Notes under the pieces: generated by a model
What the model was told of the DNA's origin: nothing
The model's database searches: none
Seen by the model: the letters and a program-made list of their open reading frames with translations, nothing else
Assembly: GCA_965242725.1 (NCBI GenBank)
Contig: CBDESZ010000006.1
Coordinates: forward strand, 32,001 to 96,000
Length of the DNA: 64,000 nt
From: Alkalispirochaeta sp.
Lineage (GTDB): Bacteria > Spirochaetota > Spirochaetia > DSM-27196 > Alkalispirochaetaceae
Reading direction: 5' to 3'
In this document: piece by piece, positions 22,851-59,085 of the stretch
How positions within the stretch are numbered: position 1 is the first letter of the stretch
Layout: each line of letters starts with the position of its first letter
Program-made: the position numbers and the translations under genes

Positions 22851-23053
22851 CCGTTTTCCCTCCAATGGTCGAAGCTCGCAGGGTACCACGTATACCTATC
22901 GGTGTAGAAGAGGGTTTTGAGTCATCCCCGATTCGTCGTGAATATCGTAATGTCCGCGTCGCATTGAGCACCGTAAGGAGGGACCCCTACATCCGCTATG
23001 ACCGCCTCCCACATCCCGCTTAATACAATTCCGTGACAAATCATATTTCATTA

Positions 23054-32550: not shown

Positions 32551-32859
32551 CTACTTCCGCTTTTTCGCATCGACGTTGTCAGGAGTCGCGTCTCTCGCAT
32601 GGGCATCCTGCGCATCGTTGCCCGTGGCACGGTGTCTGTGCATCCCCAGTAACATCGGCACATGGAGCGCTACGAAGAGAATGTAGAGCACGTTTCTACC
32701 TTGGTCCGGCACTGAAATTCCAACTTTCGGAAGCAGGTAGACCGCAGTTAGCATGATGGCGCCAAACACCATCATGCCGGTATGCGAGGTAATCGCAGCT
32801 ACACCTCGGCTCCAAAGACTCTCTTCTCGGGTTTCTGCGTGGCGGTCCGGTGCCGTCAT
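32551..32859 (-). CDS. Small membrane protein (DUF2933-like, copper-cluster associated)
   Basis: 2 TM followed by [12 protein letters not shown]; overlaps the copA stop. Confidence 0.55.
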
Positions 32860-35207
32860 GCCGCAGCTCCTTCGGTTTTCGCTCCTGCGGTGGAAAGATC
32901 TTCCGAGGGTGCGGTGAACTTGACCTTTGCTCTTCGTAGGAGATTGGCGTTCGTAACCACGTTGATCGAGCTGAACGCCATTGCCGCTTCCGCGATAACC
33001 GGGTGTAGCAGTCCGAGCACCGCCACAGGAATAGCCACGGTGTTATAGAAGTACGCCCAGAAGAGATTTTGCTTGATCTTCCTAAAGGTCGCCTTGGAAA
33101 GCCGAATCGCGGTAACCACCCCGGAAAGCTCGCCGCTCACAAGGGTAACGTCGGACGCCTCAATTGCAATGTCCGTTCCCGTGCCGATCGCGATTCCTAC
33201 GTTGGACTGTGTAAGGGCGGGGGCATCGTTGATACCGTCCCCGACCATCGCGACGCTGCCGACCTTCTCCTGCAACCGCTTGATCTCGTCCACTTTGCCA
33301 TCCGGGAGCACCTCCGCGAGTACCCGGGAAATCCCAACCTTTCGGGCGATTGCCGAGACGGTTTTCTCGTTGTCTCCGGAAATCACCGCCGTCTCGATAC
33401 CCATCCGCTCAAGCTCGTGAATCGCCGCGACCGAATCCGGCTTCAATGTGTCCGCTACCGCCACGGTTCCGAGAATGGTCCCGCCATAGGCTACAAGCAT
33501 TGCGGTCTTTGCCTCGTCCTCCAGACGATTCATTGTGTCCGCGGCGGACTCGATAACGACTCCGGCTTCTCCCATAAGCTTCCTGCTACCGACAAGGATT
33601 TCTTTCCCCTCGACGACCGCACGAACTCCCTTGCCTCGCACCGCCTTGAACTCCTGGGGCTGGGCAATCTCAATTCCCTCCTCTTTGGCGAGCTTGACGA
33701 ACGCCTGCCCCAGCGGATGCTCGGAGCCGGACTCCGCGGAGGCGACCAGACGCAAGAGTTCTCGTCGATCGATTTCGGTAAAGGCGATAAGGTCGGTAAC
33801 CTCGGGCTTTCCCTTGGTGATGGTTCCGGTCTTGTCGAATACGACGGTGTGAATGTCCTTGAGTCCCTGAATTGCCTCGCCCCGACGAATCAGGATTCCA
33901 TTTTCGGCGCCGATACCGCTACCGACCATGAGAGCGGTCGGAGTAGCGAGGCCGAGGGCGCAGGGGCACGCGATCACCAACACCGCCACGGCGGCAAAGA
34001 TGGCCAGGGTGACCGTTCCGACGCTCGGATCTACCCAGGGCAGAAATGTAGATGCCCACTCGGTAATCGGCAACAGAGTTTCGGGGAAGACCATCCATAC
34101 GAGAACCGTAAACGCCGCCACAGCCAGTACGACAGGTACGAAGTAGGAGGTTACGCGGTCCGCAAATTCTTGGATCGGAACCTTTGACCCCTGGCACTCC
34201 TGTACCATTCGTATAACTTGAGAAAGAAAGGTATCCTTGCCTACCTTTGTCGCCCGAACCTTCAGTAGCCCTTCCTGGTTCACCGTGGCGCCGATCACCT
34301 CGTCTCCATTCCCCTTGTTCACCGGCATCGATTCACCAGTAGCCATGGACTCGTCTAAAGAGCTCTCGCCTTCGACTATTATCCCGTCGGTTGGAATCTT
34401 TTCTCCGGGGCGCACTACCATCACATGGTCTATTTGGACCTGTTCAATCGGAATCTCCCGTTCCTCGCCATCTTCGATTACGCGAGCCGTCTTAGCGCCA
34501 AGTTCCAAGAGCCGCTTAATGGCCTGAGACGCTCTTCCGCGGGCTGCGGTCTCCACGTATCGCCCGGTTAGATGAAACGCCATTATCATGGCGGCGACTC
34601 CCGCATAGTTGGCCACGGGGAGGAAGAAGGCGGCGGGGCCTGTCGCCAGGGAGACGACCGTACCCATCGCAATAAGTACGTCCATATTCGCGCTGCCGTG
34701 TGAGACCGCCTTAAATGCCGAACGCAGGGTGCTCCAGCCGACGCCGAACATCACCGGTAGGGCTAAGGCGATCATTCCAAGATCGAAAATCGCCTGGGTC
34801 GGCCAGACGATGCCTGCGAACATTTCAAAGGACATCCATACGATGATGGGCAGGGTGAACGCCCAGGCGGTCACCATTTTGCGACGGGCTGCCGACATCC
34901 GCTTCTCGTCCTCGTCGACTTTCCCGTCTTCACCGGTCGCATCCGGCTTTTCGCCGACCGCATAGCCGACGGCTTCCACCGCCGCCTTGAATTGCGATAC
35001 CCCAACGACCGACGGATCATAATGAAGCGTGGCCTGTTCGGCAGCAAAGTTGACCCCCGCCGAGCTTACGCCGGGAACCTTACCTAACGCTTTTTCAATT
35101 GTCTGTGCGCAGGATGCACAACTCATCCCTTCCAAAGGAAGGACCGCCGTTTCCAGACGAACGCTCTGAGTATCGGTACTATCTATGCGTGCTTTGGTAG
35201 CTTCCAT
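32856..35207 (-). CDS. copA: Cu(I)-exporting P1B-1 ATPase
   Basis: GMSCASC HMA, CPC, DKTGT, HP, YN and MAFSS. Confidence 0.96.
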
Positions 35208-35247: not shown

Positions 35248-35386
35248 TGTATAGCGTCGGATTAGTTGGCGGGAGTGTCAACCCCTTTTTGTTTTTTATG
35301 TCAACTTTATGTTTGAGGACGATAGTGGCCCGCGTTCTTTTTGCTCCGAGGAATGCATGGAGATCTATCGGTGCACATGATTAATC

Positions 35387-35440
35387 GTCACCTACTCGTA
35401 ATACAACCGTCACTCTGCGGTCACCTTGAGCTGCTACATT
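35387..35440 (+). promoter_or_regulatory. OmpR-type 11-bp direct-repeat promoter
   Basis: GTCAC/GTAAT/GTCAC/GTCAC at 35387/35398/35409/35420, then 10 nt, then TACATT. Confidence 0.7.
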
Positions 35441-38945: not shown

Positions 38946-39774
38946 ACCGATACCTGCCACGAGAGACGGTACGTCATCGCCGGTGGGGTCCCGGCGGGAG
39001 AGGAATAGCCGAGACGGCACTGTCAGAGGCGGGGAGCTTACCGGAAACCTCCATTCCGTTGAAACCTTCGGTACGCTGGATGGCCCGGGAATTCGTTTTG
39101 TCATGTTTTTTCAGGGGTGTCATTTGCGCTGTCTTTACTGTCAGAATCGCGACACTTGGGAAGTGGGCGACGGCCGGTCGGTAACCATTGACCAGATGAT
39201 GGAGGAAATCCGGGCGGTCCGCAGCTTCCTCGATCGTTCCGGGGGTGGTATTACCGCCTCCGGCGGAGATCCTATCCTGCAGGCGCGGTTTGTCGGAGCG
39301 CTCTTTGAGGCCGCGAAGAGGGAGGGAATTAATACAGCCCTCGACACGTCGGGTCTTACGGTAATAACCCCAGCCGTCGAGCGATTGATTGAGGTGACGG
39401 ATCTGATATTGCTCGATATTAAGCATGTCGACGACAAGAGGCATCGAGAACTGACGGGCCGGCCGAACCGGCTGGTCCTGGAGTTTGCGCGGTGGCTCGA
39501 TAAACTTGGGAAGCGGACATGGATACGACACGTCGTGGTGCCGGGTTTTACGACCGACGCCACCTCGGCGCAGATGACGGGGGAGTTTCTCTCCAACCTC
39601 TCGAATCTGGAGCGTGTCGAGCTACTTCGATACCACGAAATGGGTAAGCACAAATGGATATCCCTCGGAAAACGATATCCGTTGGAAGGTACCCCGGTTC
39701 CAAGTCGAGCACAACTGGAGTATGTCCAGGCGATATTCGCGCGCTATGGCGTGGCGGCGGCGATTTCCGGATAG
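38932..39774 (+). CDS. pflA: Pyruvate formate-lyase activating enzyme (radical SAM)
   Basis: [15 protein letters not shown] and SGGDP; overlaps the pflB end. Confidence 0.93.
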
Positions 39775-40685: not shown

Positions 40686-40742
40686 GCTCCAACTATAAGT
40701 TGAGTAGCTTGATTTGTGAACAGGACATTGGTAGGACACCGC

Positions 40743-41393
40743 ATGAAGATGACGGTGGAATTGCGGCGGTATAACGACGCGTCGTACTTCGTCGCTACCG
40801 ACGGCGATGGGAACGGTGTGTCAATCGACGGGTCTCCGGCCGTCGGGGGCCAGGGCCGCGTTTTAGGCGGCGCCATCCTCGGTCCACGGGAGATTATTGC
40901 CGACCTGCGCTTCTTCGCGCGTCAGACCGGTCCCGCGCTGTCGTCGTTCTATGCGTGGGTTCTCTCCAAGAGCCTGAAGACACTATCGATGCGATTGTAC
41001 CGACATTGTGAGAATGCCCACGCCGTGGCACGCTATCTCAGAAGTCACCACGCGGTGGAGCGCACGCGCTTTCCCTTCCTCGAGAGTCACCCGCAGTATG
41101 AGCTCGCCCGGCGACAGATGCGACACGGCGGCGGCCTTGTCACGATCGATATCGTCGGTGGGGAGGCGGCGGCGATGCGCTTCATCAACCGCTTGAAGGT
41201 GATCAGTCGCTCCGCGAACCTCGGAGATTCCCGATCGATCGCCACTCATCCCCGCACAACAACCCACTCAAAACTCGAGGAGGAGCAGCGACGGGTGCTG
41301 GGTATTCTTCCGGGTACGGTACGGCTTGCGATCGGGCTGGAGAACGGCGAGGACATCATCGCCGATATCGACCATGCCTTGGGGGAGGACTGA
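40743..41393 (+). pseudogene. Chimera of an OsmC-like N-terminus and the C-terminal half of a Cys/Met PLP enzyme (MetZ-like)
   Basis: IDGSPAVGGQG joined to RVLGG..SLKTLSMR..NLGDSRSIATHP..VRLAIGLE; the PLP-lysine region is absent. Confidence 0.75.
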
Positions 41394-41397
41394 GACA

Positions 41398-41808
41398 ATG
41401 TTCACCCTCTCCGCAAAGGCGATCTACGGTCTCACTGCGGTCGTGGAATTGGCACATCAATACCGCTCCGGGCCGGTGCAAATCCGGGACATCGCCTCCC
41501 GCCACGAGATCCCCCGACACTACCTTGAACAGATCCTAAATACCCTCAAGCGCAGTGAGTTGGTACGGAGCCATCGAGGCGCCCACGGTGGTTACGAACT
41601 CACGGCCCACCCCGACTCCATTAGCCTGCGGGCGGTGCTCACGGAATTGGAAGGACCACTCGCAGTGGCCCATGTAGGACCGGCCGCTTCGCTCCAACCG
41701 TTGTGGGACGATCTGGCGGCGCACATAGACGGCTTTCTCGCGCAGTCGCTGGATGATGTGATGCGGCGCCGGATCACCGGGCAGGTCGACCAAGATTTCA
41801 TCATTTGA
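41398..41808 (+). CDS. Rrf2-family regulator (Cys-less, CymR-like)
   Basis: YLEQIL..LKR..LVRSHRGAHGGYEL. Confidence 0.88.
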   Translation: MFTLSAKAIYGLTAVVELAHQYRSGPVQIRDIASRHEIPRHYLEQILNTLKRSELVRSHRGAHGGYELTAHPDSISLRAVLTELEGPLAVAHVGPAASLQPLWDDLAAHIDGFLAQSLDDVMRRRITGQVDQDFII

Positions 41809-41909
41809 CATCGGGCGCAAGGTTGACATGTGGCCGGCGCCAAGCTAAAGGGCTCCGAGTGTGAAAAAAGTTCGTGAGACGGTGAAACTATCCGGGCAAA
41901 CACGTTGCG

Positions 41910-42683
41910 CTACATCGTCAGACCCAACAAAGTCAGTAATTCGGTTCTCGTCTTCGTGTAGTCGGCGCTACTGCGGTCTCGCGGCCTGGACATCGCAATC
42001 GATAGGTCCGCCTTGAGGTGTGCGGGACGGGATGAGAGGACCATAACGCGGTCGGCCAGTGACAGCGCCTCGTCGACATCGTGGGTGACCATCACGATGG
42101 TCCGTCCCGACCCTTTCCATATTCGGAGAAGCTCTTCGTGCATCTGCATCCGGGTCATTGCATCCAGGGACCCGTAAGGCTCGTCCATGAGAAGGATTGC
42201 CGGCTGCATGACGAGTGCGCGCGCGATGGCCGTACGTTGTCGCATTCCCCCTGATAGTTGATGGGGATAGTACTCCTCAAATCCGCAGAGCCCCACTTGC
42301 TCGAGGACCTCACGGACGAGGCGGTGTGCCTCGTCCGTGTCCGCGTGGCGGTACTCGAGCCCCAAGGAAATGTTTCGGCGAACGGTACGCCACGGAAGAA
42401 GTCCGTCCTGCTGGAACACCATCGTTCGCTCGTGCGGGCCGAGATGGTCTGCGTCTCTGCCGCGCACCAGTAAGCGCCCCCCGCTGGGCTGTGAAAGGCC
42501 GGCCAGCAGGGACAGAAGCGTGCTCTTGCCACATCCGGACGGACCGAGAACGGCGACAAACTCGCCATCGGGAACGCGGAAAGACAGTGGACCAAGAACC
42601 ACGAGTGACCCGTACATCTTGGTTACCCCGTCCACCTGAAGTGCGTCGACAACCACTCGCTCTGCGGAATTAATCATTTCCAA
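41910..42683 (-). CDS. ABC ATPase (nitrate/sulfonate/taurine family)
   Basis: GPSGCGKS, LSGGMRQR, MDEP and VTHD. Confidence 0.92.
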   Translation of the reverse strand: MEMINSAERVVVDALQVDGVTKMYGSLVVLGPLSFRVPDGEFVAVLGPSGCGKSTLLSLLAGLSQPSGGRLLVRGRDADHLGPHERTMVFQQDGLLPWRTVRRNISLGLEYRHADTDEAHRLVREVLEQVGLCGFEEYYPHQLSGGMRQRTAIARALVMQPAILLMDEPYGSLDAMTRMQMHEELLRIWKGSGRTIVMVTHDVDEALSLADRVMVLSSRPAHLKADLSIAMSRPRDRSSADYTKTRTELLTLLGLTM

Positions 42684-43398
42684 CGTACCTCCATCGCAGC
42701 AGCCGGTGTTTTATCCACTCGAGTACAATTCGGTCGATGATAGCCGCAATAACACCGATAACTACGATGTGCGCGAGAGCGCCCGCCATATCGGCGATTT
42801 CCGCGGCAAAGGTGATAGACCATCCCAGACCAACGCCTACGCCCGCGACCATTTCCGAAGCCACAAGGGCGCGCCACGCGTTACCAAAGGCAATCTGCGT
42901 TCCGGTCACGGCGGCGGGAAACACCTCGGGAAGGTAAACTGTACGCAGAGTCTGTCGGCGTGAAGCCCCCAGAATCCGCGCAACTTTCAAATGGAGAGCG
43001 TCCACGTGTTCCGCGGCACTCATGACGCTTTGGATGAGGGGATAGAAGCTCGCCAGCGCGACGACAATGATGATAGGGGCATCGCCGAACCCTGTGAGTA
43101 TTACCAGAAGCGGTACCCAGGTTATCGGCGGTATCGATTGCAGTACTGAGACCAGGGCGCGTAGATAGCTACGAAGCGAGTTGGAGAGTCCGGAGGCAAG
43201 GCCCAGGCTTGTGCCCAAAATTATGGCAACGGCAAACCCGACGCCGATACGATAGAAACTCACCATGAGGGCCTCTGCAAACTCCCGCGTTCCGAGCACC
43301 GTGGCAAGCCGACGAGCGACCTCCGCCACTCCCGGAAGCAGGAACGAAGGAAAGAACGCAGCGGCCGTCTGCCACGTGACGAGAATCGTACCTGCCAC
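42670..43398 (-). CDS. ABC permease (SsuC/TauC-like); start uncertain
   Basis: IPPITWVPL, ARILGAS loop and AWRALVASEM. Confidence 0.88.
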   Translation of the reverse strand: MAGTILVTWQTAAAFFPSFLLPGVAEVARRLATVLGTREFAEALMVSFYRIGVGFAVAIILGTSLGLASGLSNSLRSYLRALVSVLQSIPPITWVPLLVILTGFGDAPIIIVVALASFYPLIQSVMSAAEHVDALHLKVARILGASRRQTLRTVYLPEVFPAAVTGTQIAFGNAWRALVASEMVAGVGVGLGWSITFAAEIADMAGALAHIVVIGVIAAIIDRIVLEWIKHRLLRWRYVGND

Positions 43399-43427
43399 CG
43401 CAAGGTACGCGACGACTATCCGTCGCG

Positions 43428-44411
43428 CTATCGGATTGCCTGCTGCCAGGACATATCGAGGAGCTGTTCAAGATCGACGCGCTGTGCGAGCAAACCTTCA
43501 TCGTGCATCATCTCTTCGACCTCCTTAATACGCTCCAAATCCTCCGAGGTTAGACGCCAGCTGAAGGTGTTTGCTTCGATCGCCTCCGCGACAACACGAC
43601 GTGCCGGAACCGGCCCCGACGGTGTCTCCAACGTTTCTTCGGCCATGAAATAGTGTGTGATCATGCCGGCCGCTTGGTTGGGATCCCCTTCCAGAAGCGC
43701 GATCGCTTCCTTTTGAGCTTCCAGCACGGATTCGATAGTGCTGCGATTCTCCTGCCAGGTTTCGGCGGAGGTGATTACCACCATGCAGGGGAACGGCCAG
43801 TAATCTCCAACTTCGGCAATCTCTCGCACGGGGGCCGTATACCTGGCAATCCGGGCGTAGGGTTCAAAAAGGAACGCCGCGTCAACGCCACCGCTCACGA
43901 GGGCCTGCACTGCGACGGCGGGCGATACGTGGCGCATGTTGAGGTCTCTTTTGGACAAACCGGAATCCGCAAGTAAGACGTTGCTCAGCACAATATCGGC
44001 CGTGGAGCCCTGTTTCTGCGAGGCGAGCTCTCGACCATGCAACTCCGACACGTCGGTTATTCCGGTATCACGTCTCGCAAGCAGGGAGTGGTACCCTCGT
44101 TGCGCGCCTCCGACAATGCGCAAGCTCGCACCGCGGGATGCCCAGGTAAGGGCGTTGGTAAAACCAAGAACGCCGACATCGATTCTGCCTCCCACAATGG
44201 CCTTGACCATGTCGGTGCCGCTTGCGAATTGAGTCAGCCGGGGCTCCAGGCCTCGGTCGCCGTAAAAGCCGCCCTCGTACGCCACGAGAACTGAGGCATC
44301 ATCCATGACATTTACATAACCGATTCGAACAGGCTCTCCGAAAAGCACCCCGCCGGTGACTGTCAGGAACAAAATCCCGAGGACAACCCCGATACTCCTT
44401 TTCCCAACCAT
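43428..44411 (-). CDS. ABC substrate-binding protein (SsuA/NrtA-like)
   Basis: Signal peptide, VRIGY, GSTAD and VDAAFLFEP. Confidence 0.85.
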   Translation of the reverse strand: MVGKRSIGVVLGILFLTVTGGVLFGEPVRIGYVNVMDDASVLVAYEGGFYGDRGLEPRLTQFASGTDMVKAIVGGRIDVGVLGFTNALTWASRGASLRIVGGAQRGYHSLLARRDTGITDVSELHGRELASQKQGSTADIVLSNVLLADSGLSKRDLNMRHVSPAVAVQALVSGGVDAAFLFEPYARIARYTAPVREIAEVGDYWPFPCMVVITSAETWQENRSTIESVLEAQKEAIALLEGDPNQAAGMITHYFMAEETLETPSGPVPARRVVAEAIEANTFSWRLTSEDLERIKEVEEMMHDEGLLAQRVDLEQLLDMSWQQAIR

Positions 44412-44868
44412 AGTACGCTCCTTAATTCGGTGAATGCATTGAGCATCACTGACTTGGTTTTGGATAGATACTATACTTTGTAACATTAGTTAGTCAACTT
44501 TAAGACCCTGCATTCGTGTCTTCTACAATGCTGCGGGCTTGCAACTCGAGATCACTTTTCCACGAAGGTGCCTCAGCTCCCGAGTAAGTGAGGGGAAGCG
44601 CAAGGAGTTCCAGTCTATCGCCTGCGCGGTTAGGGAACCGGCTCCGGTTACCAGGGAGCTTCTCGTTTCAGATGTCCTTGAGGGGGGGTGCGGGAACATC
44701 GTTTTCTCACGCCGCCCGGTATTGCATCTCTTGAGAAGATGACGGGAACTCGAGGTGTGGTAGATCCTGAGGAAGGACGCCTCATACGTGGCGTGACCGA
44801 GGACGTCCCTATCGAATCGCCGGTTTCGGTATATGTGAACCTCTTCGAAGCGATGTGCCGCCGCGATT

Positions 44869-44922
44869 GTCATCTGTTCGTAATAAGCCTGTCATTCTAC
44901 GTTCACCTTGAGCTGCTACATT
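44869..44922 (+). promoter_or_regulatory. OmpR-type 11-bp direct-repeat promoter
   Basis: GTCAT/GTAAT/GTCAT/TTCAC at 44869/44880/44891/44902, then 10 nt, then TACATT. Confidence 0.7.
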
Positions 44923-45523
44923 CTCAATCGTTGACGGCGAGACCTGAAGACCGCCGCGATAAATACCAAATTTGGAGGACGATTTATGAATAATCGGACA
45001 CTTTTAGTCGCCGTATTGCTGACGGCAGTTGTATTTGGAGCCTTCGCACAAGTCGACGGGCACAATCGGAGTGTCGAAGACGTGGAGGCGGAAATTCGGA
45101 CCACCCTGGGCTTGAGTAGCGAGGAGAGAATCAATCCGGACGCGGTTCCCGAGGAACTGCTCATCGTCCTCGGTGACGCGGTAATGGGAGCCTATGTAGG
45201 TGACCCTGAGCGGCACGAATGGATGGACGAGATGATGGGAGGCGAAGGTTCGAGCTCTCTGGATGCCGCACATCGGTGGATGGCGTATCGGTATTTAACC
45301 GGCGGATATGCCACGGCGGGAGGAATGGGATACGGCATGATGGGCGGTGGAATGATGGGTACCGCCGGCATGATGGGCGGCGGTTGGGGCCTCATGGGCA
45401 ACCCCGACATGATGTACGAGGGGATTCCGTACGGTTCACCGGAAGAGGTGCTCAAACGCCGCTATGCGGCCGGGGAGATTTCGCGTCGGGAATTCCGGCG
45501 AATGCTTCGCGAGATCGAATAGA
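44903..45523 (+). repeat. About 620-bp direct repeat, copy 2
   Basis: Near-identical to 35421-36041. Confidence 0.95.
44986..45522 (+). CDS. Exported His/Met/Gly-rich SHOCT-domain protein, copy 2
   Basis: Protein identical to 35504-36040. Confidence 0.85.
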   Translation: MNNRTLLVAVLLTAVVFGAFAQVDGHNRSVEDVEAEIRTTLGLSSEERINPDAVPEELLIVLGDAVMGAYVGDPERHEWMDEMMGGEGSSSLDAAHRWMAYRYLTGGYATAGGMGYGMMGGGMMGTAGMMGGGWGLMGNPDMMYEGIPYGSPEEVLKRRYAAGEISRREFRRMLREIE

Positions 45524-47310: not shown

Positions 47311-49221
47311 TCACGGTGACGCGGATTGATACGCCAGCATACATTCCTCCGAGCAGAAGTAGTGCGTACGATCGGAGCTCTCGAGAACAAAGGGATTGCC
47401 CGTTTGATGCACTACCATACCGCAGACCGGGTCCATTGCTCCGTCGGAAATTCCGGTCGTCCGCACTTCGATATCCGAAACGGTTGGGACGCTCGTCCCG
47501 GTATTCCTGAGTATCTCGCTGACTTCTGCGGCGGTACTCACCGATACGCAGCGATTCGCGATTGTCCGAAACCGGTCCTCGGAGCCTTCCGGTACCGCGC
47601 GCCGTACCGCGTCCACCGCATGGACATCTACGCTGAGATCTGAAAAACCGAGGCCGAAAAGCAGCGGGACCATGTCGGGATCCGAGGCGATCTCTCCACA
47701 GAGCGTCACCGGAACGGACGCGGCCTTCGCAGACTCGACGATGTGTGCCAGAGCCCGCAACGCGGTGGGGTGGTAAGGTCGGTAGAGGTGGCCCACATTC
47801 CCGTTTGTACGGTCTACGGCAAAGTGGTACTGCAGCAGATCGTTGGTGCCGACGCTGACAAAATCGACCTTGTCATAAATCTCCTGCAGTGTCCAAAGAA
47901 TGGAAGGGACCTCCAACAATACACCCTGCTTGAAATCACGCCGATACGGCGTCCCTTCAGCGTCGAGCTGTGCCCGTGCCTCGCCTACTAGGGAGAGTAC
48001 CGCGTCGAGATCGTCGACGGTTTCTATCATCGGAAAAAGCAGTCGGAGCTCCCCGCATTCAAGACCCGCCCGAAGGATGGCCTTCGTTTGCGTAATCAAT
48101 ATCTCCGGATGATAGGCGTAAATGCGATGCGCCCGAAGACCGAGGAAGGGGTTTTCCTGAGGACCGAGGGAAAAGAAGGAGAGACTCTTATCTCCGCCGA
48201 CATCGAAGGTCCGGATTGTGACCGGAGAGGCGGGCCACTCCCGGCAGAGTGTGCGGTATTCCCGGTACTGCTGCTCTTCCGTCGGAAAGCCTTCCGCTCG
48301 GGTCAGGAGGAACTCGCTCCTGTAGAGGCCTATCCCGGCGATGCGCCCATCTTTGTCCGTCGACGATGCGTGGGTATCCACTACATTTAGGTAGACCGAG
48401 AGAGGCGAGGCCACGCTTCCACCTATGTCCGTTTTCTCCACTTCAATCCACTCTTCGATTTCCGGGTCCTTTAGCCCCAGTATGAGCCGCCCATTCGTGG
48501 TGTCTACGACAACCCGACTGCCGGCTACCTCCCTGAGGGACTCAACCCCGGCAACTCTGAGTACCGGTATGCCGAAGGCCTTCGCCATGATCGCGGCGTG
48601 GGAGAGGGGGGTTCCCGTTGCCGCAATAATCGCTTTCACCCCCGCGTCCTTTGCCTCGAGAACCTCAGTCACCAGAAGCTCCTGGGTAACGAACACCGGG
48701 GCCTCCACATCGCAGACCGTCGAAAGTACGTCCTCCCGCTTTTGCCCGTCTAACCCTTCACGAAGCCGGCGGTGCAGATCCTCGATGTCGGAGGCTTTCT
48801 CCCTGGTTATCTCGTGACCGGAGCGTTGTAACCGGGTCTTGACCGATCCGAAAACTTCCGCAACCGCGCTCTCCGCCGTCGCGTCTTCTTCTTCGATCCT
48901 CTTTCTGACCTGCTCCCGAAGTCCCTCATCTTTAAGAAGAAGGATGTGAGTCCGGAGGATATCGGCCTCGGAACCAAACCCTTCCGCTCGAAGTATCTCC
49001 TCGGTAGATGCAATCTCCGCCTCCAGTAACGACATTTGCCTCTCTACGCGAGCGAACTCCGAAGCGTACGGCGCCTGAGCCGCGATCCGCCCGTTGTCGG
49101 GCGCCTGATGCGGTCGTGGTACGTCTCGAAAACAGATCGTGCCGGAAACCACCGGCGCCGTTGAAATCGGTATTCCCGCAAGGAACCTTACCCTGCCTTT
49201 GTCGTCTTCAGTCATCGTCAT
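47311..49221 (-). CDS. PTS Enzyme I-like PEP phosphotransferase fused to a C-terminal YHS/TRASH domain
   Basis: SHAAIMAK phospho-His, GIGLYRSEF, RTFDVGGDK, ENPFLGLR, SVGTNDL and LCGE; C-terminal DPVCGM..HYFCSEEC. Confidence 0.9.
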   Translation of the reverse strand: MTMTEDDKGRVRFLAGIPISTAPVVSGTICFRDVPRPHQAPDNGRIAAQAPYASEFARVERQMSLLEAEIASTEEILRAEGFGSEADILRTHILLLKDEGLREQVRKRIEEEDATAESAVAEVFGSVKTRLQRSGHEITREKASDIEDLHRRLREGLDGQKREDVLSTVCDVEAPVFVTQELLVTEVLEAKDAGVKAIIAATGTPLSHAAIMAKAFGIPVLRVAGVESLREVAGSRVVVDTTNGRLILGLKDPEIEEWIEVEKTDIGGSVASPLSVYLNVVDTHASSTDKDGRIAGIGLYRSEFLLTRAEGFPTEEQQYREYRTLCREWPASPVTIRTFDVGGDKSLSFFSLGPQENPFLGLRAHRIYAYHPEILITQTKAILRAGLECGELRLLFPMIETVDDLDAVLSLVGEARAQLDAEGTPYRRDFKQGVLLEVPSILWTLQEIYDKVDFVSVGTNDLLQYHFAVDRTNGNVGHLYRPYHPTALRALAHIVESAKAASVPVTLCGEIASDPDMVPLLFGLGFSDLSVDVHAVDAVRRAVPEGSEDRFRTIANRCVSVSTAAEVSEILRNTGTSVPTVSDIEVRTTGISDGAMDPVCGMVVHQTGNPFVLESSDRTHYFCSEECMLAYQSASP

Positions 49222-49238: not shown

Positions 49239-49364
49239 AGAGTATCAGTGACAGGTGACCGCAAGGTGACGAGTTTATTACAAATGTATGACAGCGCAGA
49301 GTTATATAGCGTCATCAAATTGCAATACGGTCGTTATATCTGCGTAATGCCGCTCTTTTATACT
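49239..49364. promoter_or_regulatory. Back-to-back pair of OmpR-type 11-bp repeat promoters
   Basis: Minus: GTCAT/GTAAT/GTCAC/GTCAC (49292-49255), 10 nt, TACTCT. Plus: GTCAT/GCAAT/GTTAT/GTAAT (49311-49348), 10 nt, TATACT. Confidence 0.72.
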
Positions 49365-49421: not shown

Positions 49422-50063
49422 ATGAATATGGACACCATGAACCAGTACGGGAAATTCCGCGCGACGTCGCACCGTGCCGCGCTCTTCGCGCTTATTCTGA
49501 CGACCATGATCGGAGCGCCGACGGTCTTCTCCCTCCCCTTCGGTCATATGGGATTGGCCAATCACCGTTCCACGGGATACATAGGACCCTCGATCGGTAT
49601 GTCGCCGGTTGAATCCGGCCCGGCCACCTGGGTCGGTCTCCGAGGGGGGTGGGAGTTTGATCACGCCGTCGCCGTGGGTGTAACGGGTAATTGGCTTCTA
49701 AGCAACATCGAGGAAGAGACCGGAAACAGCGCCAACCTCGGTTACGGAGGAATAGAGTTTCGGACGTTTCTATTGTCCCAGGCCCCGGTCTCCCTCGCCT
49801 TCGATTTAACAATCGGGGCCGGTTCCGTGGGAAGCGGCGTTCATTTCATGGGGGGAGGTCACCACGATTCCGACGAGGAGTCCGACGGCTTTTTCGTGGT
49901 CGAGCCGGAGCTGCAGTTGGTGTTTCGGGCGAATCGTTTCGTTCGCCTCGAATTGGGAGCCGGATACTTTATCACCAGCGGCGTCGACGTACCGGGAATT
50001 AACGATGGGGACTTGAGTGGGCCAAAGGCGACGCTATCCATGAGCTTTGGAGACTGGCTATAG
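49422..50063 (+). CDS. Small outer-membrane beta-barrel protein with His/Met loop
   Basis: GGAGG RBS, signal peptide, amphipathic strands, HFMGGGHHD and FFVVEPEL. Confidence 0.65.
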   Translation: MNMDTMNQYGKFRATSHRAALFALILTTMIGAPTVFSLPFGHMGLANHRSTGYIGPSIGMSPVESGPATWVGLRGGWEFDHAVAVGVTGNWLLSNIEEETGNSANLGYGGIEFRTFLLSQAPVSLAFDLTIGAGSVGSGVHFMGGGHHDSDEESDGFFVVEPELQLVFRANRFVRLELGAGYFITSGVDVPGINDGDLSGPKATLSMSFGDWL

Positions 50064-50279: not shown

Positions 50280-51344
50280 ATGAGCGAGAAAAAAACGAAA
50301 GTAGCGGTAAACGGCTACGGCGTGATAGGCAAACGAGTCGCCGACGCGGTGGTGGCACAACCGGATATGGAGCTTGTCGGGGTCGCGGACGTCGTCAACG
50401 ATTACAGGATGAAGACGGCGGCGATTCGCGGGCTGCCCATTTACGCTGCGCTCCCGGAGAAAGCCGCCGGCATGCGCGAGGCGGGTCTCAGCATTGCAGG
50501 CGATCTGGACGACTTATTGGCGCAAAGTACGGTCATCGTCGACTGTACGCCCAAAGGTATCGGAGCCAAAAACCTTGAACGATATACGAAGGCGGGGGTC
50601 AAGTCGATCTTTCAGGGAGGCGAAAGCCACACGCTCACCGGTCATTCATTTGTCGCACAGGCGAACTATGAGAGCGCTATCGGTCGCGACTCCACACGAG
50701 TCGTTTCGTGCAACACGACCAGCACCGTGCGCACACTGGTGGCACTTCGTTCAGCCGGGCTTCTGAAGAAGGCGAGAGGCGTATTGATTCGGAGAGCAAC
50801 CGATCCGTGGGAATCCGACCACAGCGGGATCATGAATACCGTCGTTCCGGAGCCCCATATTCCCAGCCATCAGGGCCCCGACGCACAAACGGTTATTCCG
50901 GATCTTGAAGTGGTAACGATCGCCGCCAAGGCGTCACACACGCAGACCCACAATCACTATTGGATCGTGGAACTCTCGCGCACCGTCGAGAAAGAAGAAA
51001 TACTCGATGCGTTTCGTGCCGCTCCTCGTATTGCGTTTATCCGCATGAGTGACGGTATTGTCGCGTTAAACAGCACCATTGAGCTGATGAAGGACCTTGG
51101 CCGGCCCCGCGGCGACATGTGGGAGGTAGCGCTGTGGGCAGACGTCCTGACGGTAAACGGAAACGAAGCGTACTACACCTACCAAGTGTACAACGAAGCG
51201 ATCGTTGTGCCGGAGAACGTGGACGCAATTCGAGCGCTGAGCGGTGTCGTGTCGGATGCGCATGAGTCCATCCGAATAACCGACACGGCACTCGGCATGC
51301 GACGGGAGTTTCTGATTCAGGACGCCCCGGGAGATAAGAAATGA
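50280..51344 (+). CDS. gap: Type II (archaeal-type) glyceraldehyde-3-phosphate dehydrogenase
   Basis: VAVNGYGVIGKRVADAV..QPDMELVGVAD, FQGGE, RVVSCNTT, RRATDP and VVPENVDAIRA. Confidence 0.9.
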   Translation: MSEKKTKVAVNGYGVIGKRVADAVVAQPDMELVGVADVVNDYRMKTAAIRGLPIYAALPEKAAGMREAGLSIAGDLDDLLAQSTVIVDCTPKGIGAKNLERYTKAGVKSIFQGGESHTLTGHSFVAQANYESAIGRDSTRVVSCNTTSTVRTLVALRSAGLLKKARGVLIRRATDPWESDHSGIMNTVVPEPHIPSHQGPDAQTVIPDLEVVTIAAKASHTQTHNHYWIVELSRTVEKEEILDAFRAAPRIAFIRMSDGIVALNSTIELMKDLGRPRGDMWEVALWADVLTVNGNEAYYTYQVYNEAIVVPENVDAIRALSGVVSDAHESIRITDTALGMRREFLIQDAPGDKK

Positions 51345-52339
51345 ACCGTGTGTCGACGAATCCCCGGATCGACGGAGAGTCCGACCTGTCACATTCCATA
51401 CACGCCGGAAAAGTTGCGGTGGTTGGAGCCGGCGGTGTCGGCGCGAGCTTTTCCTTTGCACTCCTGCTGAGCGGACTTGCGTCGGAGATCGTTCTCATCG
51501 ATGCCAACCAATCCAAGGCCGAGGGAGAAGCATTAGATCTGAATCATGCGGTCCCGCACACGCATCCGACGCGGGTGTGGGCAGGAGATTACGGCGATTG
51601 TGCGGGGGCCGCGGTGACCATCGTAGCGGCCGGGGCTGCGCAGCAGTCCGATCAAAGCCGTCTGGAACTCGCGGAGAAAAATTCGGACATCTTCCGCCGG
51701 ATTGTGCCGAATATCGTACGCAACAATCCGACGGGAATCATTCTCGTCGCGACCAATCCGGTCGACGTACTGACCCGTCTCACATGGGAACTTTCGGGTA
51801 TGCCGGAGGAAAAGGTCCTGGGCTCCGGGACAATCCTCGACACGGCGAGATTCCGGCATCTTCTCAGTCTGCACTTTGGGGTAGATCCGCACAGCGTGCA
51901 TGCCTACATCGTCGGTGAACACGGGGACACCGAGGTGCCGCTCTGGTCGCTCGCGAACATCGCCGGCATGCGGTTTCCCGAGTTTTGCGCGGTCAATAAC
52001 ATGAAGTGCGACAATGACGAAATGGAGAAGATATTTCGGAGAACCCGGGACGCGGCGTACGAAATCATCCGGAAGAAAGGTGCAACCTATTACGCGATCG
52101 GAGCCGGCCTCGTGCGGATCGTGACGGCGATTCTGAGGAATCAGCGCACCGTGCTCTCAGTAAGTACCCGTATCACCGATTACTATGGGATAAACGGTAC
52201 CTTCCTGAGTATGCCGTGTGTCGTCGGTGGCGCCGGAGTCGAACGGTATCTTCGTTTAAATCTGAGCGACGACGAGGCTACGGCATTACAACATTCGGCG
52301 GCCGTAGTGGACAAATCGATGGAATCGATACGGCAATGA
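51341..52339 (+). CDS. ldh: L-lactate dehydrogenase
   Basis: GAGGVG, NPVD, GSGTILDTARFR, VGEHGD and KGATYYAIG. Confidence 0.93.
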   Translation: MNRVSTNPRIDGESDLSHSIHAGKVAVVGAGGVGASFSFALLLSGLASEIVLIDANQSKAEGEALDLNHAVPHTHPTRVWAGDYGDCAGAAVTIVAAGAAQQSDQSRLELAEKNSDIFRRIVPNIVRNNPTGIILVATNPVDVLTRLTWELSGMPEEKVLGSGTILDTARFRHLLSLHFGVDPHSVHAYIVGEHGDTEVPLWSLANIAGMRFPEFCAVNNMKCDNDEMEKIFRRTRDAAYEIIRKKGATYYAIGAGLVRIVTAILRNQRTVLSVSTRITDYYGINGTFLSMPCVVGGAGVERYLRLNLSDDEATALQHSAAVVDKSMESIRQ

Positions 52340-53439: not shown

Positions 53440-53718
53440 CTACCGACGATATGTACCGAGCATACTCATGATCTCTTTTTGCTTTTCCGTTTGCTCGGTG
53501 AGATTCTCGCTTCGAATCGCATCGGCGACACAGGTGTCAAGATGATTCTGGAGAACGATGTTCTCGACGTTGCGTATCGCCGCGACTACGGCCGAAGTCT
53601 GGTTCAGTATGTCTAAGCAGTATCGATCTGTTTCAACCATTTTACTGACCCCGCCGAGCTGGCCCCGAATCCTGCTTAAGCGATCGCGTATACTCTTTTT
53701 TTGTTTATCGTCAAGCAT
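53440..53718 (-). CDS. csoR: CsoR-family copper-sensing repressor
   Basis: RLSRIRGQ, YCLDILNQ and NHLDTCV (C-H-C ligands). Confidence 0.9.
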   Translation of the reverse strand: MLDDKQKKSIRDRLSRIRGQLGGVSKMVETDRYCLDILNQTSAVVAAIRNVENIVLQNHLDTCVADAIRSENLTEQTEKQKEIMSMLGTYRR

Positions 53719-53956: not shown

Positions 53957-55987
53957 ATGAGTAAGCAGGTTGACCACAATCACCACAATCACCACGGTGA
54001 TCAACACCATGACCACAATGAACATCACAGGATGATGATCCGTGATTTCCGAACGCGGTTTTACGTGACCCTGGTGTTCACCATTCCGGTCCTCGCGTTA
54101 TCGGAACTCATTCAGCAGTTCCTCGGCTTTTCGTTCACCTTTGCCGGAGCGGATTATGTCGTCTTTGGCCTGGCCACGATCATATTTGTATATGGCGGCT
54201 GGCCCTTCCTTAGCGGTCTGGTCGGTGAACTTAAGCAGAAAGCACCGGGCATGATGACCCTCATCGCTCTCGCCATAACGGTAGCGTATGTCTACAGCGC
54301 GGCGGTAACGTTTGGTCTTGAAGGGACACCTTTTTATTGGGAATTGGCAACCTTAATCGCGATTATGCTTGCGGGTCACTGGATTGAAATGGCCTCAGTA
54401 TTAAGTGCGTCGTCCGCCCTTGAGAAGCTTGCCCAACTCATGCCGAACGAAGCGCACAAAAAGTCCGGAGACGATGTTAAAGACGTCCCGCTCTCGGAGA
54501 TCAAGAAGGGTGATATTCTGGTCATCAAGCCGGGAGAAAAAATACCCTCTGACGGCGTGATCACTCGCGGGTCGAGCTATATAGATGAGTCTATGCTGAC
54601 CGGTGAGTCTCGCCCGGTGCACAAGGAGTCAGGCGATCAGCTTATCGGCGGCTCTATAAACGGCGACGGATCGATGGAACTCAGGGTGGAAAGTTCGGGC
54701 GAAGATTCCTACCTTTCAAAAGTCATCAATATGGTCAGGGAGGCGCAGGCAGCCAAGTCGAAGACGCAAGCACTTTCGGATCGTGCGGCGCTCTGGCTGA
54801 CGATTGTCGCAATAACGGTGGGATTATCGACCCTCGTGGCGTGGTTGCTTGCCGGGCAGGGGTTGCAGTTTTCCATTGCCCGGATGGCGACGGTAATGAT
54901 CATTACGTGTCCCCACGCTTTAGGGCTGGCGATACCATTGGTGGTAGCACAGTCCACCGCCAAGTCCGCTCAGAACGGCCTGCTGATTCGCAACCGTACC
55001 GCCTTTGAGAATGCCCGGAAGATAAGCGCGGTCCTCTTTGATAAAACGGGAACGCTTACCAAGGGAACCTTCGAGGTTAACTCCGTGAATGTCCATAGCG
55101 GTCCGTACACAGAAAAGGAAATTCTCTCATTTGCGGCAGCCTTGGAGGGGCAGTCGGAACACCCCATCGGTAAGGGAATTGTGACAAAAGCGAAGAGCGA
55201 CGGAATCACCATCCAATCTGCCGATGATTTCGAGGCGATTAAGGGTAAGGGCGTCACCGGTACCGTCGGGAGTAAGCGCATTCAGGTAGTGAGCCCGGGA
55301 TATTTGGAAGAACAGGGGCTCGACAGGCCGCAGGGAGCGGAGCGCAAGGGCGGGGTCACCCGCGTCTTCGTCCTCGTTGACGGCGAAGTTGCAGGATCCG
55401 TGGCTCTTTCCGACACCATTCGACCCGAGTCCTACCGGGCGATTCAAGCGCTGAAAAAACGGGGAATCGAATGCTGGATGCTCACCGGAGATAACCGGGA
55501 GACTGCCGAAGCCGTTGCGGAGGAACTCGGAATGGACGGGTTCTTTGCGGAGGTCCTCCCCGATCAGAAGCAGGAAAAGGTGAAGGAGTTGCAGGACAAA
55601 GGAGCGTATGTTGCTATGACCGGTGATGGGGTCAATGATTCGCCGGCCCTCGCCCAGGCACAGATCGGCATTGCCGTCGGGTCCGGAACGGACGTTGCCG
55701 CTGCGACGGCCGATATTATACTGGTCAACTCCAACCCACTTGATATTACCGCGTTAATTCTCTTTGGTCGGGCTACCTACCGGAAAATGGTGCAGAACCT
55801 GATCTGGGCAACGGGTTACAACGTGGTGGCCATCCCCCTGGCGGCAGGCGTTTTATACAGTAGCACCGGTATGGTGCTTTCACCGGAGGTTGGTGCCATT
55901 CTGATGTCCCTTTCCACCGTGATTGTTGCCGTAAACGCGCGACTCTTGCGCGTCAAGAAAGAGGAATTGGAAGAGGCGACGGCTTGA
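53957..55987 (+). CDS. copB: Copper-exporting P1B-3 ATPase
   Basis: His-rich N-terminus, CPH, DKTGT, GYN and MSLST. Confidence 0.95.
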   Translation: MSKQVDHNHHNHHGDQHHDHNEHHRMMIRDFRTRFYVTLVFTIPVLALSELIQQFLGFSFTFAGADYVVFGLATIIFVYGGWPFLSGLVGELKQKAPGMMTLIALAITVAYVYSAAVTFGLEGTPFYWELATLIAIMLAGHWIEMASVLSASSALEKLAQLMPNEAHKKSGDDVKDVPLSEIKKGDILVIKPGEKIPSDGVITRGSSYIDESMLTGESRPVHKESGDQLIGGSINGDGSMELRVESSGEDSYLSKVINMVREAQAAKSKTQALSDRAALWLTIVAITVGLSTLVAWLLAGQGLQFSIARMATVMIITCPHALGLAIPLVVAQSTAKSAQNGLLIRNRTAFENARKISAVLFDKTGTLTKGTFEVNSVNVHSGPYTEKEILSFAAALEGQSEHPIGKGIVTKAKSDGITIQSADDFEAIKGKGVTGTVGSKRIQVVSPGYLEEQGLDRPQGAERKGGVTRVFVLVDGEVAGSVALSDTIRPESYRAIQALKKRGIECWMLTGDNRETAEAVAEELGMDGFFAEVLPDQKQEKVKELQDKGAYVAMTGDGVNDSPALAQAQIGIAVGSGTDVAAATADIILVNSNPLDITALILFGRATYRKMVQNLIWATGYNVVAIPLAAGVLYSSTGMVLSPEVGAILMSLSTVIVAVNARLLRVKKEELEEATA

Positions 55988-57271: not shown

Positions 57272-57967
57272 ATGGCCGGTGAGCGCATTCTCATCGTTGA
57301 CGATGAGGCCGGCATACAGAAGACACTAAAGGCGTATCTGGAAAATGAAGGATACGCCACGGAGTCAGTAACCGAAGGCGATTGGGTGCTCCCGAGGGTA
57401 CAGATATTTAAGCCTGACGTTGTTATTCTTGATATTATGCTCCCAGGAATTGATGGAATAGAAGTATTAAGACGACTCCGGCAGGACTCCTCCGTATTGG
57501 TGCTCATGCTCAGCGCCAAGGGCGAGGAGTCCGACCGTCTCGTGGGACTCAAAATGGGGGCAGATGACTACGTCGTAAAACCATTTAGTCCCCGGGAGGT
57601 TGTAACTCGGGTCGGCGTTCTCCTTCGGCGCGGTCGGGGAGCGGACGGCGACCCGGGCGACGTTATTAGATTTTCCCGAATCACCGTCGACCCGGGCAGC
57701 AGACAAGCGTGGAAAGATGCGACAATACTGAGCCTGACTCCGATAGAGTTTGACTTGCTCCTCACCCTTTCCCGCAACAGCGGGCGAGTCCTCAGTCGAG
57801 ATCAGTTGATCGACCACGCCTGGGGTGACGACTACTACATCGATGAGCGTGTCGTTGATGTGCACGTTCGCAGACTCCGCAGGAAGATCGAAGACGATCC
57901 CCGAGAAGCCCGAATTATTGCCACCGCGCGAGGTGCCGGCTATCGCCTGGATTCCAATCACGCATGA
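57272..57967 (+). CDS. OmpR-family response regulator (CopR-like)
   Basis: IVDDE, LDIMLP, GADDYVVKPF and VDVHVRRLRRK. Confidence 0.95.
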   Translation: MAGERILIVDDEAGIQKTLKAYLENEGYATESVTEGDWVLPRVQIFKPDVVILDIMLPGIDGIEVLRRLRQDSSVLVLMLSAKGEESDRLVGLKMGADDYVVKPFSPREVVTRVGVLLRRGRGADGDPGDVIRFSRITVDPGSRQAWKDATILSLTPIEFDLLLTLSRNSGRVLSRDQLIDHAWGDDYYIDERVVDVHVRRLRRKIEDDPREARIIATARGAGYRLDSNHA

Positions 57968-59085
57968 AGCTGGAAACATTCTTAAAACCGAAACTTGGAC
58001 GTAAGCTCTTTCTTTCCCATTTGATTGTTGTACTCGTGGGAAGCGTGGTCCTGGCGGCCGTCGCCTACCTGCACGCACCTCGCGCGCTGACACATCACAT
58101 GGCGGAAATGGACGCAGCAATGGGGCGGATGCACGGCATGGGAGTGGATCTCAGGCAGAGTTTTCTTGCTGCGGTGGGCGAGGTGCTCTTCGTCGCGGGA
58201 CTCGTCGCCGTCGGGGCGGCGGTAGTGGTGAGCAGTTTCGTGGCATGGCGAATTATCGGGCCAGTTCGTTCTTTGACGGTTGCCAGTAGACGTATCGCCG
58301 ACGGCGATTACTCCCACCGAGTCGAGGCCGTCTGGAAGGATGAGTTGGGAGAGCTGGCCGCGTCGTTCAATCGCATGGCTGCCGCACTCGATGAAACCGA
58401 AAGGAGACGTGCGGAACTTATTGGCAATGTAGCCCACGAACTTCGCACGCCGCTCACAACGATTCGGAGCATGATGGAAGGGCTCATTGATGGTGTGTTG
58501 CCGGCGGATACCGAAACCTTTCTCGACGTACAGCGCGAGGCATCACGGCTCGGCCGTCTCACCTCAGAATTGAGCGAGCTCTCTCGTGCCGAAGCGGGGG
58601 AGATTTCATTGGAAACCAAGCTGACGGATCCGAAAGTACTGCTCCGAATAGCCGTTAATCGCCTTCGTCCGCAATTCCAGGACAAAGGTATTGCGCTGAC
58701 GGTCGGGTTTCCACAACGAAACCTGCCGTGGGTCGATGTAGATGACGAAAAGATACTCCAGGTTCTGCTCAATTTAATCGGAAATGCACTCCAATATACC
58801 GACCCGGAGGGTAGCGTCCAGGTACAGTGCCAAGCGGAGGGAGATTTGGTTCGGTTTTCCGTTTCTGATGATGGAATCGGCATTCCGCCCGAGGATCTCC
58901 CTCGGGTGTTTGAGCGATTCTATCGGGTGGATAAGTCGCGAGCACGCTCCCGCGGTGGGAGCGGAATCGGTCTCACTATTGCCGCTCATTTGGTGAAGGC
59001 TCATGGTGGAACAATCGCGGTCAAAAGTAATGGGATTGGTCAAGGAAGTGTTTTTTCTTTCGTCATCCCACGACCGAAAGATTAA
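57964..59085 (+). CDS. HAMP sensor histidine kinase (CopS-like)
   Basis: 2 TM flanking HHMAEMDAAMGRMHGM; AHELRTP, NLIGNA, DDGIG and GSGIGL. Confidence 0.93.
   Translation: MKLETFLKPKLGRKLFLSHLIVVLVGSVVLAAVAYLHAPRALTHHMAEMDAAMGRMHGMGVDLRQSFLAAVGEVLFVAGLVAVGAAVVVSSFVAWRIIGPVRSLTVASRRIADGDYSHRVEAVWKDELGELAASFNRMAAALDETERRRAELIGNVAHELRTPLTTIRSMMEGLIDGVLPADTETFLDVQREASRLGRLTSELSELSRAEAGEISLETKLTDPKVLLRIAVNRLRPQFQDKGIALTVGFPQRNLPWVDVDDEKILQVLLNLIGNALQYTDPEGSVQVQCQAEGDLVRFSVSDDGIGIPPEDLPRVFERFYRVDKSRARSRGGSGIGLTIAAHLVKAHGGTIAVKSNGIGQGSVFSFVIPRPKD

Follow-up and report, generated by a model that had tools for sequence, protein, structure and literature searches.

The GAF domain of EI-Ntr (PtsP), a sensor-bearing form of Enzyme I (EI, PtsI) of the phosphotransferase system (PTS), senses a ligand. 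In EI-Ntr this small sensor domain is fused to EI, and the PTS in which it works has hardly any permeases or none (PMC2937029). A second enzyme with a fused sensor is the class IIIc adenylyl cyclase of Mycobacterium phlei, which consists of a catalytic domain and one C-terminal YHS domain with the ligands D, C, C, C; copper at 1-10 micromolar activates the cyclase through this domain, and other metals do not (PMC4626032). In addition, the lgt2 and lit2 genes are housekeeping-type duplicates that are found on mobile copper elements and are induced with them (PMC8689077). Here we describe EI-YHS, encoded at positions 47311 to 49221 of a 64,000-nucleotide (nt) stretch of DNA from Alkalispirochaeta sp. 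(contig CBDESZ010000006.1), hereafter the window, in which a PTS EI carries a C-terminal YHS domain. We propose, giving this reading about an even chance of being right, that EI-YHS is a copper-induced and copper-modulated accessory EI which acts on the HPr of its host. The gene and the parts of its product, in amino acids (aa) and residues numbered from the first ATG, are the following:

47311..49221, minus strand: EI-YHS gene, 636 aa from 49221 and 634 aa from the likelier start at 49215
48799..49152, minus strand: EIN alpha subdomain (HPr-binding), residues 24-141; I88, H92, D98, R/K142 and D145 conserved
48490..48696, minus strand: phospho-His domain, residues 176-244; H208 (codon 48600-48598) corresponds to E. 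coli H189, and V187 stands for T168
48403..48489, minus strand: EIN-EIC linker in shortened form, residues 245-273; relative to ordinary EI it lacks T-x-D-G and about 13 residues
47503..48402, minus strand: barrel (EIC) binding phosphoenolpyruvate (PEP), residues 274-573, with R301, R337, R363, E437, N460, D461, R471 and C508 (codon 47700-47698)
47437..47502, minus strand: flexible tether, residues 574-595; pLDDT below 50 at 582-592
47314..47436, minus strand: YHS/TRASH-type module, residues 596-636, with the ligand set D597, C600, C623 and C627

An earlier note on this DNA had described an EI with a C-terminal YHS domain at this place, and the domain searches bear this out. Pfam finds PEP-utilisers_N at residues 24-141, the mobile domain at 176-244, PEP-utilizers_C at 274-543 and YHS at 596-629, and with the EI family model TIGR01417 the protein scores above the cut-off (357.5 bits against 341.7). 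The motifs that the note had named, SHAAIMAK (with H208), LCGE (with C508), DPVCGM and HYFCSEEC, are all present. The second ATG, at 49215, is the likely start, with AGGGG 8 nt upstream and a database copy of 634 aa. The strict enteric PtsI model is failed (272.8 bits, cut-off 824), as is the PtsP model (306 bits, cut-off 583), and the Pfam scan shows no GAF domain. The models for PEP synthase and pyruvate phosphate dikinase (PPDK) match the barrel only, far below their cut-offs, and an ATP-grasp nucleotide-binding domain is absent. According to Pfam, no HPr or EIIA domain is fused to EI-YHS, which places it outside the multiphosphoryl transfer proteins; the homologue search spanned proteins of 349-1113 residues, so that longer fused forms fall outside that range. 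A Radical_SAM match in the same scan was discarded as noise, being below the cut-off, without a stretch of its own and present in 1 of 67 members.

The residues needed for catalysis are in place: H208, R301, R337, R363 and E437 align with E. coli H189, R296, R332, R358 and E431, and N460, D461, R471 and C508 with N454, D455, R465 and C502. Among 136 tail-bearing proteins they are kept at 99-100%. Comparison with genome G413 gave 46 synonymous and 30 replacement changes in the barrel codons, and 5 and 4, respectively, in the tail. Judged from these residues and codons, the catalytic set is intact and under purifying selection, and the copper island in which the gene lies apparently carries its own, working copy of EI. 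In the AlphaFold model (pLDDT 86.8, pTM 0.78) a loose tether (582-592) joins a folded tail to an EI body, and Foldseek matches it to solved EIs with E 1e-38 (E. coli 2HWG and S. carnosus 2HRO among those named).

With respect to the tail, the Pfam model PF04945 (YHS) gives E 0.0016 and 18.8 bits on EI-YHS itself (gathering score 30.3), and a match at E<=0.01 in 61 of 67 family members, the best of them 1e-11. D597, P598, C600, F622, C623 and C627 are invariant in all 67 aligned members. The ligand pattern D/C-x2-C ... C-x3-C is present in EI-YHS, with D, C, C, C as described for the cyclase (PMC4626032), and it recurs in 120 of 121 proteins, namely the query and its 120 best matches (one of which is the protein of the window itself); the single miss is one residue off. 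In the full model the YHS part forms hairpins and a helix with pLDDT 73-96; modeled alone from a single sequence it is poor (55), and a solved relative of the tail was not found by sequence.

The architecture is not a one-off fusion, as it defines a conserved clade. In a tree of 93 EI parts with the tail removed, the tail-bearers form one group with support 1.0, and the host's own EIs and GAF-EIs fall outside it; P0129, in which the motif was not found, and loci with EI pieces shorter than 420 residues were left out of this tree. The family is small, because only 25 of 1.84 billion representatives of 50% clusters score at least 670 bits before fragments and the sister group follow, ordinary EIs reaching at most 493. 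Relatives at 87% and 49% are labelled Alkalispirochaeta and Marispirochaeta, respectively, which makes a spirochaete the probable host. Carriers with a species label include P0004 (labelled Marispirochaeta aestuarii) and P0058 (labelled Deferrisoma camini), so that there is a named cultured carrier. Database entries of EI-YHS bear automatic names only, and the ESM Atlas returned generic EI clusters only. A variant in L104:6497-9852 and L108 leaves the last Cys unmatched (His in L108/P0125) and has no metal genes nearby; in L104 it stands after an enolase gene.

The tail co-occurs, in the aligned proteins, with a loss of about 13 residues from the linker that joins the phospho-His domain to the PEP domain. 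Between the phospho-His and the first PEP-binding Arg, the spacing is 90-98 residues in all 129 tail-bearers measured (9 of 138 were dropped from this count); it is 101-114 in ordinary EIs (101 of 101) and 103-107 in the tail-less sister EIs that were measured (7 of 7). The T-x-D-G motif at the start of the barrel is found in none of the 129 tail-bearers and in 78 of the 101 ordinary EIs. Other marks of the clade lie in the barrel, which has W277, H371 and W443 as clade-specific residues and a mean of 6.1 Cys against 5.4; in its last helix a C-x6-C pair occurs in 111 of 138 clade members against 3 of 117 outside it, half of the pair being present in the EI-YHS of the window. Furthermore, HPr-facing positions differ, a Tyr found in 68% of ordinary EIs being replaced by Leu, Val or Ile; these altered positions are presumably HPr contacts in EI. 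The position of E. coli T168 is Val in 90% of the clade, and is no strict family mark, as only 59% of the ordinary set has Thr there. In E. coli EI, T168 hydrogen-bonds the resting His, and the flip of this His is not rate-limiting (PMC8295985); it is the swivel of the His domain on the linker that brings the His to PEP (PMC5537066). A complex prediction of the EI body, Zn and the tail hints that the tail may dock on the body: the docking score was 0.44 against 0.00 for the best control, with runs agreeing in at least 97% of contacts and a partner pLDDT of at least 81. Of 157 solved pairs 116 attain the docking mark, as do 2 of 215 mismatched pairs; passes as low as <=0.60 comprise 18 of the 157 solved pairs and both passing mismatches.

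The surroundings of the gene were analyzed in 48 clade loci, 43 from metagenomes (found with a clade-specific DNA pattern) and 5 from genomes; a general genome locus search was swamped by ordinary EIs, and 4 of its 80 loci were clade members. As controls we used the 75 ordinary EI loci L006-L080, which are skewed towards Paenibacillus and longer on average (L005 is a sister member). The metal-resistance markers (P1B-ATPase, CsoR, CusA/B, multicopper oxidase, HMA, MerT, CDF and further YHS) were drawn from the clade loci themselves, with self-matches excluded. They were present in 26/48 clade loci and 5/75 control loci, or, counting loci of at least 8 kb, in 21/31 and 5/69; four of the five control hits are RND matches without assigned specificity. 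After grouping at 65% identity, from which the frame-shifted L097 was left out, a marker was seen in 15 of 22 groups (15 of 19 with at least 8 kb), in one of them only through CDF. The copper link drawn by the earlier note stands in this respect, and in that its repeat array is common to copper modules (see below), and gives way in one subclade of 10 loci, which is almost devoid of metal genes.

HPr was nearby in none of the 48 clade loci, nor in 11 further ones, in comparison with 42 of the 75 ordinary EI loci. A dedicated partner gene was not found in 49 sources either: PII-like genes occurred in 5, MMPL in 3, PRC-barrel in 6 and P1B-ATPase in 11. The commonest neighbours, stand-alone YHS (at most 15/49) and ICMT/PEMT (at most 13/49), are not common to all loci; 240 of 282 neighbour cluster representatives were scanned with Pfam, so that some neighbours are unnamed. 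YHS is also fused to ATPases in clade loci. Beside EI-YHS, we observed a YHS-glycogen phosphorylase (L003:4103-5923) and a YHS-TrxR-like fusion (L085:527-1567), the TrxR-like cluster being found in 6 loci. In six loci (L083, L095, L111, L114, L116 and L121), which have no copper genes, the gene after EI-YHS encodes an exported protein with several PRC-barrels, and an AI-2E transporter comes next.

The nearest group to the clade is made up of EIs that have the RAHR motif of EI-YHS and no tail. They form a group with support 1.0, joined to EI-YHS with 0.996; the search of 167 genomes from one phylum, that of G462, gave them in 7 (loci L184-L188, L160 and L005). Metal genes (multicopper oxidase, P1B-ATPase, mer genes, YHS) are present at 5 of the 7 loci, and a sixth holds the cassette ICMT and Rieske genes. 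The tail is therefore not needed for keeping EI on copper islands, because these tail-less sisters sit there too. The simplest order would be recruitment first and tail second, loss of the tail being also compatible with the tree. An ancestor with EI and a separate YHS gene was considered and rejected: L166 gave a read-through match, and no YHS open reading frame (ORF) follows its EI. At 5 of the 7 sister loci EI abuts or overlaps an MMPL gene, with LolA-like and outer-membrane genes after it where the contig reaches. At one of them (L186:28-1101), a YHS domain stands at the N-terminus of an L-lactate dehydrogenase (LDH) with 43% identity to the tail-less LDH of the window (51341-52339).

The promoter of EI-YHS contains the array of 11-bp repeats which the earlier note had seen, and this array is real. 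The copies in the window and the regulatory genes near them are:

49255..49292, minus strand: four-unit array of 11-bp direct repeats before EI-YHS, scoring 20/20 (GTCAT-N6-GTAAT-N6-GTCAC-N6-GTCAC)
49311..49348, plus strand: divergent array, 18/20, with TATACT at 49359; precedes the gene 49425-50063
35387..35424, plus strand: array copy, 20/20; precedes a 178-aa SHOCT gene
44869 (19/20), 56009 (18/20) and 17836 (17/20): further array copies
57272..59085, plus strand: OmpR-family regulator and BaeS-like kinase with a His/Met-rich sensor stretch

Four-unit arrays of at least 19/20 occur at 5 sites in 4.34 Mb and at none in each of 10 block shuffles, and other periods gave no more than 1; since the sites at 49292 and 35387 served to define the pattern, those two are circular. 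Outside the window there are two such sites, each immediately after the OmpR/kinase pair of another copper-ATPase module. A -10-like TACTCT is found at 49244-49239, 15 nt past the start of the last unit. Among the 26 sites scoring at least 17, 8 have a TAnnnT box at this distance of 15 nt from the last unit, all of them in copper modules; this box is outside the array pattern, and its background is 0.006 per position. Array and fixed -10 box together were found only in the copper-ATPase/OmpR modules of the host genome. Direct repeats with an 11-bp period in place of the -35 element and at a fixed distance from the -10 are what we take to be the promoter layout of OmpR/PhoB-type regulators. In G413, the 20 pentamer bases of the EI-YHS array are unchanged and 7 of 24 spacer bases are changed. 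The pair at 57272..59085 is the likely reader of the arrays, and its paralogues (65% and 63%) stand beside the other two array-bearing copper modules of the genome. A simple test for two GTCAC units with one mismatch showed no excess (4 found, 4.1 expected), a general repeat finder missed the array, and a sigma-70 scan gave no promoter for EI-YHS. There is no array before the GAPDH-LDH genes of the island. The product of 49425-50063 has no Pfam or NCBIfam match; its sequence suggests export, beta-strands and a loop rich in His. In one metatranscriptome the island is covered in part, by short contigs of low depth (15/30 bins), which cannot show transcription. The two further copper-ATPase/OmpR modules with the array (G000:C6:10538-20000 and C16:312476-320162, L150 and L159) contain class I aldolase, DUF302-like and exonuclease III-like genes, and one has a full Rnf-like operon, some of these names being given from sequence.

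As the earlier note had stated, the window has no HPr or EII gene: no HPr was detected in its 64 kb, and no EIIA or EIIC match on its contig. The HPr genes of the host are on other contigs, and HPr was present elsewhere in the genome in 6 of 6 carrier genomes tested. The host genome, which is 92% complete, has four EIs (two ordinary EIs, a GAF-EI and EI-YHS), three HPr, HprK, nine EIIA-type domains and one permease, of the galactitol/ascorbate type. By this gene content the PTS of the host is largely regulatory, and with such a composition the output of EI-YHS is more likely signalling than sugar uptake.

Other features of the island are relevant to the origin of the gene and to the readings weighed below:

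32856..35207, minus strand: copper P1B-ATPase (CopA type, N-terminal HMA)
53440-53718, minus strand: CsoR-type repressor
53957-55987, plus strand: copper P1B-ATPase with a His-rich N-terminus
50280..52339, plus strand: type II glyceraldehyde-3-phosphate dehydrogenase (GAPDH, archaeal-type) and LDH, extra copies
44572..44849, plus strand: decayed, frame-shifted second EI piece of the EI-YHS clade (residues ~149-282; tblastn E 3e-5; best protein matches EI-YHS)
35306..35371, plus strand: possible, weak remnant of the C-terminal half of YHS (FCSEEC; profile E 0.012 among 12 frames)

CsoR-like boxes are found at 53753 and 53826. Further cargo (19125-22889, 30833-31795, 36672-39774 and 39783-44486) comprises two Lnt-like genes, Lgt, pyruvate formate-lyase (PFL) with its activase, and cysteine synthase with an Rrf2-like regulator and an ABC importer. 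Other copies of GAPDH, Lnt, Lgt, cysteine synthase and LDH exist elsewhere in the genome, and the PFL of the island is the only PFL match in it. A duplication of 658 bp (35384-36041 and 44866-45523) contains the array promoter and the 178-aa SHOCT gene, and suggests a second, lost copy of EI-YHS, because a decayed EI-YHS-like piece precedes each duplicate. The MMPL gene at 26641-29441 appears as two ORFs (483 and 443 aa), in relatives as one of 970-980 aa, and is probably frame-shifted.

The window from 28354 to 61353 is 99.3-99.7% identical over 33 kb to contig C1 of G403, another species of the genus, which points to a recent transfer of the island. EI-YHS was found in 2 of 401 genomes of the phylum of the window and in 2 of 16 other species of its genus, in 1 of 301 genomes of the phylum of a Desulfobacterales record, and, around three known carriers (151, 69 and 68 genomes), in the seed genome only. 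Its distribution is that of mobile cargo, since it is rare in all groups searched and a near-identical island is present in one congener. On both sides of the island region, contig C6 has genes for insertion sequence (IS)-like transposases, as read from the ORFs.

According to the reading that we prefer, an accessory EI would travel as cargo of copper and heavy-metal islands and be tied to copper at two levels. At the level of transcription, the OmpR-type two-component pair of the island would turn on EI-YHS from the array promoter, together with SHOCT and other cassette genes; the array and its co-location with the pair are observed, and we infer the identity of the regulator and copper as its signal. 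At the level of the protein, EI-YHS has the residues to autophosphorylate on H208 from PEP and would hand its phosphoryl group to an HPr whose gene lies elsewhere in the host genome. The docked tail would bind Cu through D597, C600, C623 and C627 and thereby shift the His domain in its swivel between open and closed, with activation of the enzyme as the likeliest effect, as in the M. phlei cyclase. The outcome would be a copper input into the phosphorylation state of HPr and EIIA and into the PEP-to-pyruvate flux.

Several observations weigh against this proposal. The tail-less sisters show that recruitment of EI to copper islands is independent of the tail, and P0138, nested in the clade, has lost it. 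In the subclade with an adjacent PRC-barrel gene, a metal gene (CDF) is present at 1 of 10 loci, with all four YHS ligands kept; L004, L104 and L108 are also without metal genes. An array scoring at least 18 was not found before clade members beyond the close relatives of the window. The tether has about 22 residues and is partly disordered, in comparison with 8-11 residues in the YHS cyclase. In addition, the YHS of toluene-4-hydroxylase is described as having no metal (PMC4626032), and deletion of ptsHI in Enterococcus faecium is reported to leave copper tolerance unchanged (PMC11234649).

The earlier note had left the choice between a metal-gated EI and a copper-protected spare one; the cyclase precedent speaks for gating (PMC4626032) and the tail-less sisters help the spare. 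As a spare, EI-YHS would be copper-induced and always active, its tail a tethered copper sink that shields C508, and it would be one more second-copy enzyme with exposed thiols or Fe-S, like GAPDH, Lnt, Lgt, cysteine synthase and the PFL system. We hold this to be doubtful, with several facts in its favour. Besides EI-YHS, the host possesses two ordinary EIs and one GAF-EI, the GAPDH, Lnt, Lgt, cysteine synthase and LDH of the island are likewise duplicated, and the sisters are kept on copper islands without a sensor tail. A generic tag, found also on LDH, glycogen phosphorylase, the TrxR-like protein and ATPases, fits a shield; copper inhibits GAPDH in S. aureus (PMC6350627), and a copper element carries lit2 and an additional lgt (PMC8689077). 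However, a passive sink needs neither the linker deletion (129/129) nor the docking that the model hints at, the clade barrel has more Cys and not fewer (with C-x6-C in 111/138 against 3/117), in the one case tested YHS gates and does not shield (PMC4626032), and our literature search found no paper showing EI as a copper target.

The tail could instead be a structural (Zn) or partner-binding module that stands in for some of the missing linker and anchors EI to the YHS and metal proteins of the cassette, copper control being transcriptional only. Even the subclade that lacks copper neighbours keeps the ligands unchanged, and the docked model was folded with Zn; moreover, the related L24e TRASH binds Cd structurally and the hydroxylase YHS is said to bind nothing (PMC4626032). 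Yet an Asp as first ligand with three Cys matches the Cu-specific cyclase sensor, in which Zn is inactive (PMC4626032), and the stand-alone YHS genes and YHS-ATPases at clade loci point to copper handling, so we regard this alternative as distinctly unlikely. We think it quite improbable, too, that the acceptor is not HPr, EI-YHS serving as a PEP-to-pyruvate valve or phosphorylating a cassette protein (PII-like, MMPL transporter, P1B-ATPase or response regulator). The constant absence of HPr from the loci (0/48 and 0/11), the changed HPr-facing positions, the PII-like genes in 5/48 loci and the MMPL gene right behind EI in 5/7 sister loci and one clade lineage would agree with it, as would the PEP-pyruvate flux that EI carries in E. 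coli (PMC5290146). Nevertheless, the HPr-binding subdomain is whole and conserved, HPr was present in every carrier genome tested, and no neighbour is shared by all loci. Going beyond EI-YHS, copper islands of many uncultured anaerobes might carry a copper switch at the protein level, in which a rise of cytosolic copper makes YHS-tagged EI, LDH, glycogen phosphorylase and TrxR-like flavoprotein turn on glycogen breakdown, PEP use and fermentation and so supply the pumps with ATP, with the PTS as a metal-sensing phosphorelay gated through the rebuilt swivel linker; we consider this wider idea unlikely.

Carbon and nitrogen status are known inputs of the PTS, and a version that reads a toxic metal was not found in the literature searched. 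Copper hits central carbon metabolism, and how cells reroute it is poorly understood; if our proposal is true, copper may directly alter how the cell uses and senses carbon. EI-YHS offers a clean test, being a soluble enzyme with a standard assay, a removable tail of 40 residues and a natural tail-less sister as control. Its YHS domain would become the second whose function has been tested, which would also inform on the YHS tags of other island enzymes.

The searches, with subscription journals and supplements outside their reach, found no literature on an EI-YHS fusion or on EI in copper elements; what is new here is the tail-less sister group on copper islands and the linker deletion that goes with the tail. 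EI-YHS resembles PtsI in its three-domain layout, fold and catalytic residues, and differs from it in the C-terminal YHS, the linker about 13 residues shorter and without T-x-D-G, Val for T168, and RAHR for RAIR; furthermore, it is never beside ptsH, and is accessory, horizontally moved and under a repeat-array promoter. With EI-Ntr it shares a small sensor domain fused to EI in a PTS poor in permeases, but it has no GAF, its sensor is C-terminal and thiol-rich, and the host genome has a separate GAF-EI. The M. phlei cyclase has the same single C-terminal YHS with D, C, C, C, on another enzyme, with a shorter tether and cAMP as output instead of a phospho-His. Finally, the island of the window, with its extra Lgt and Lnt, recalls the copper elements that carry lgt2 and lit2, whose products, in contrast to EI-YHS, act on lipoproteins and have no sensor tail (PMC8689077).

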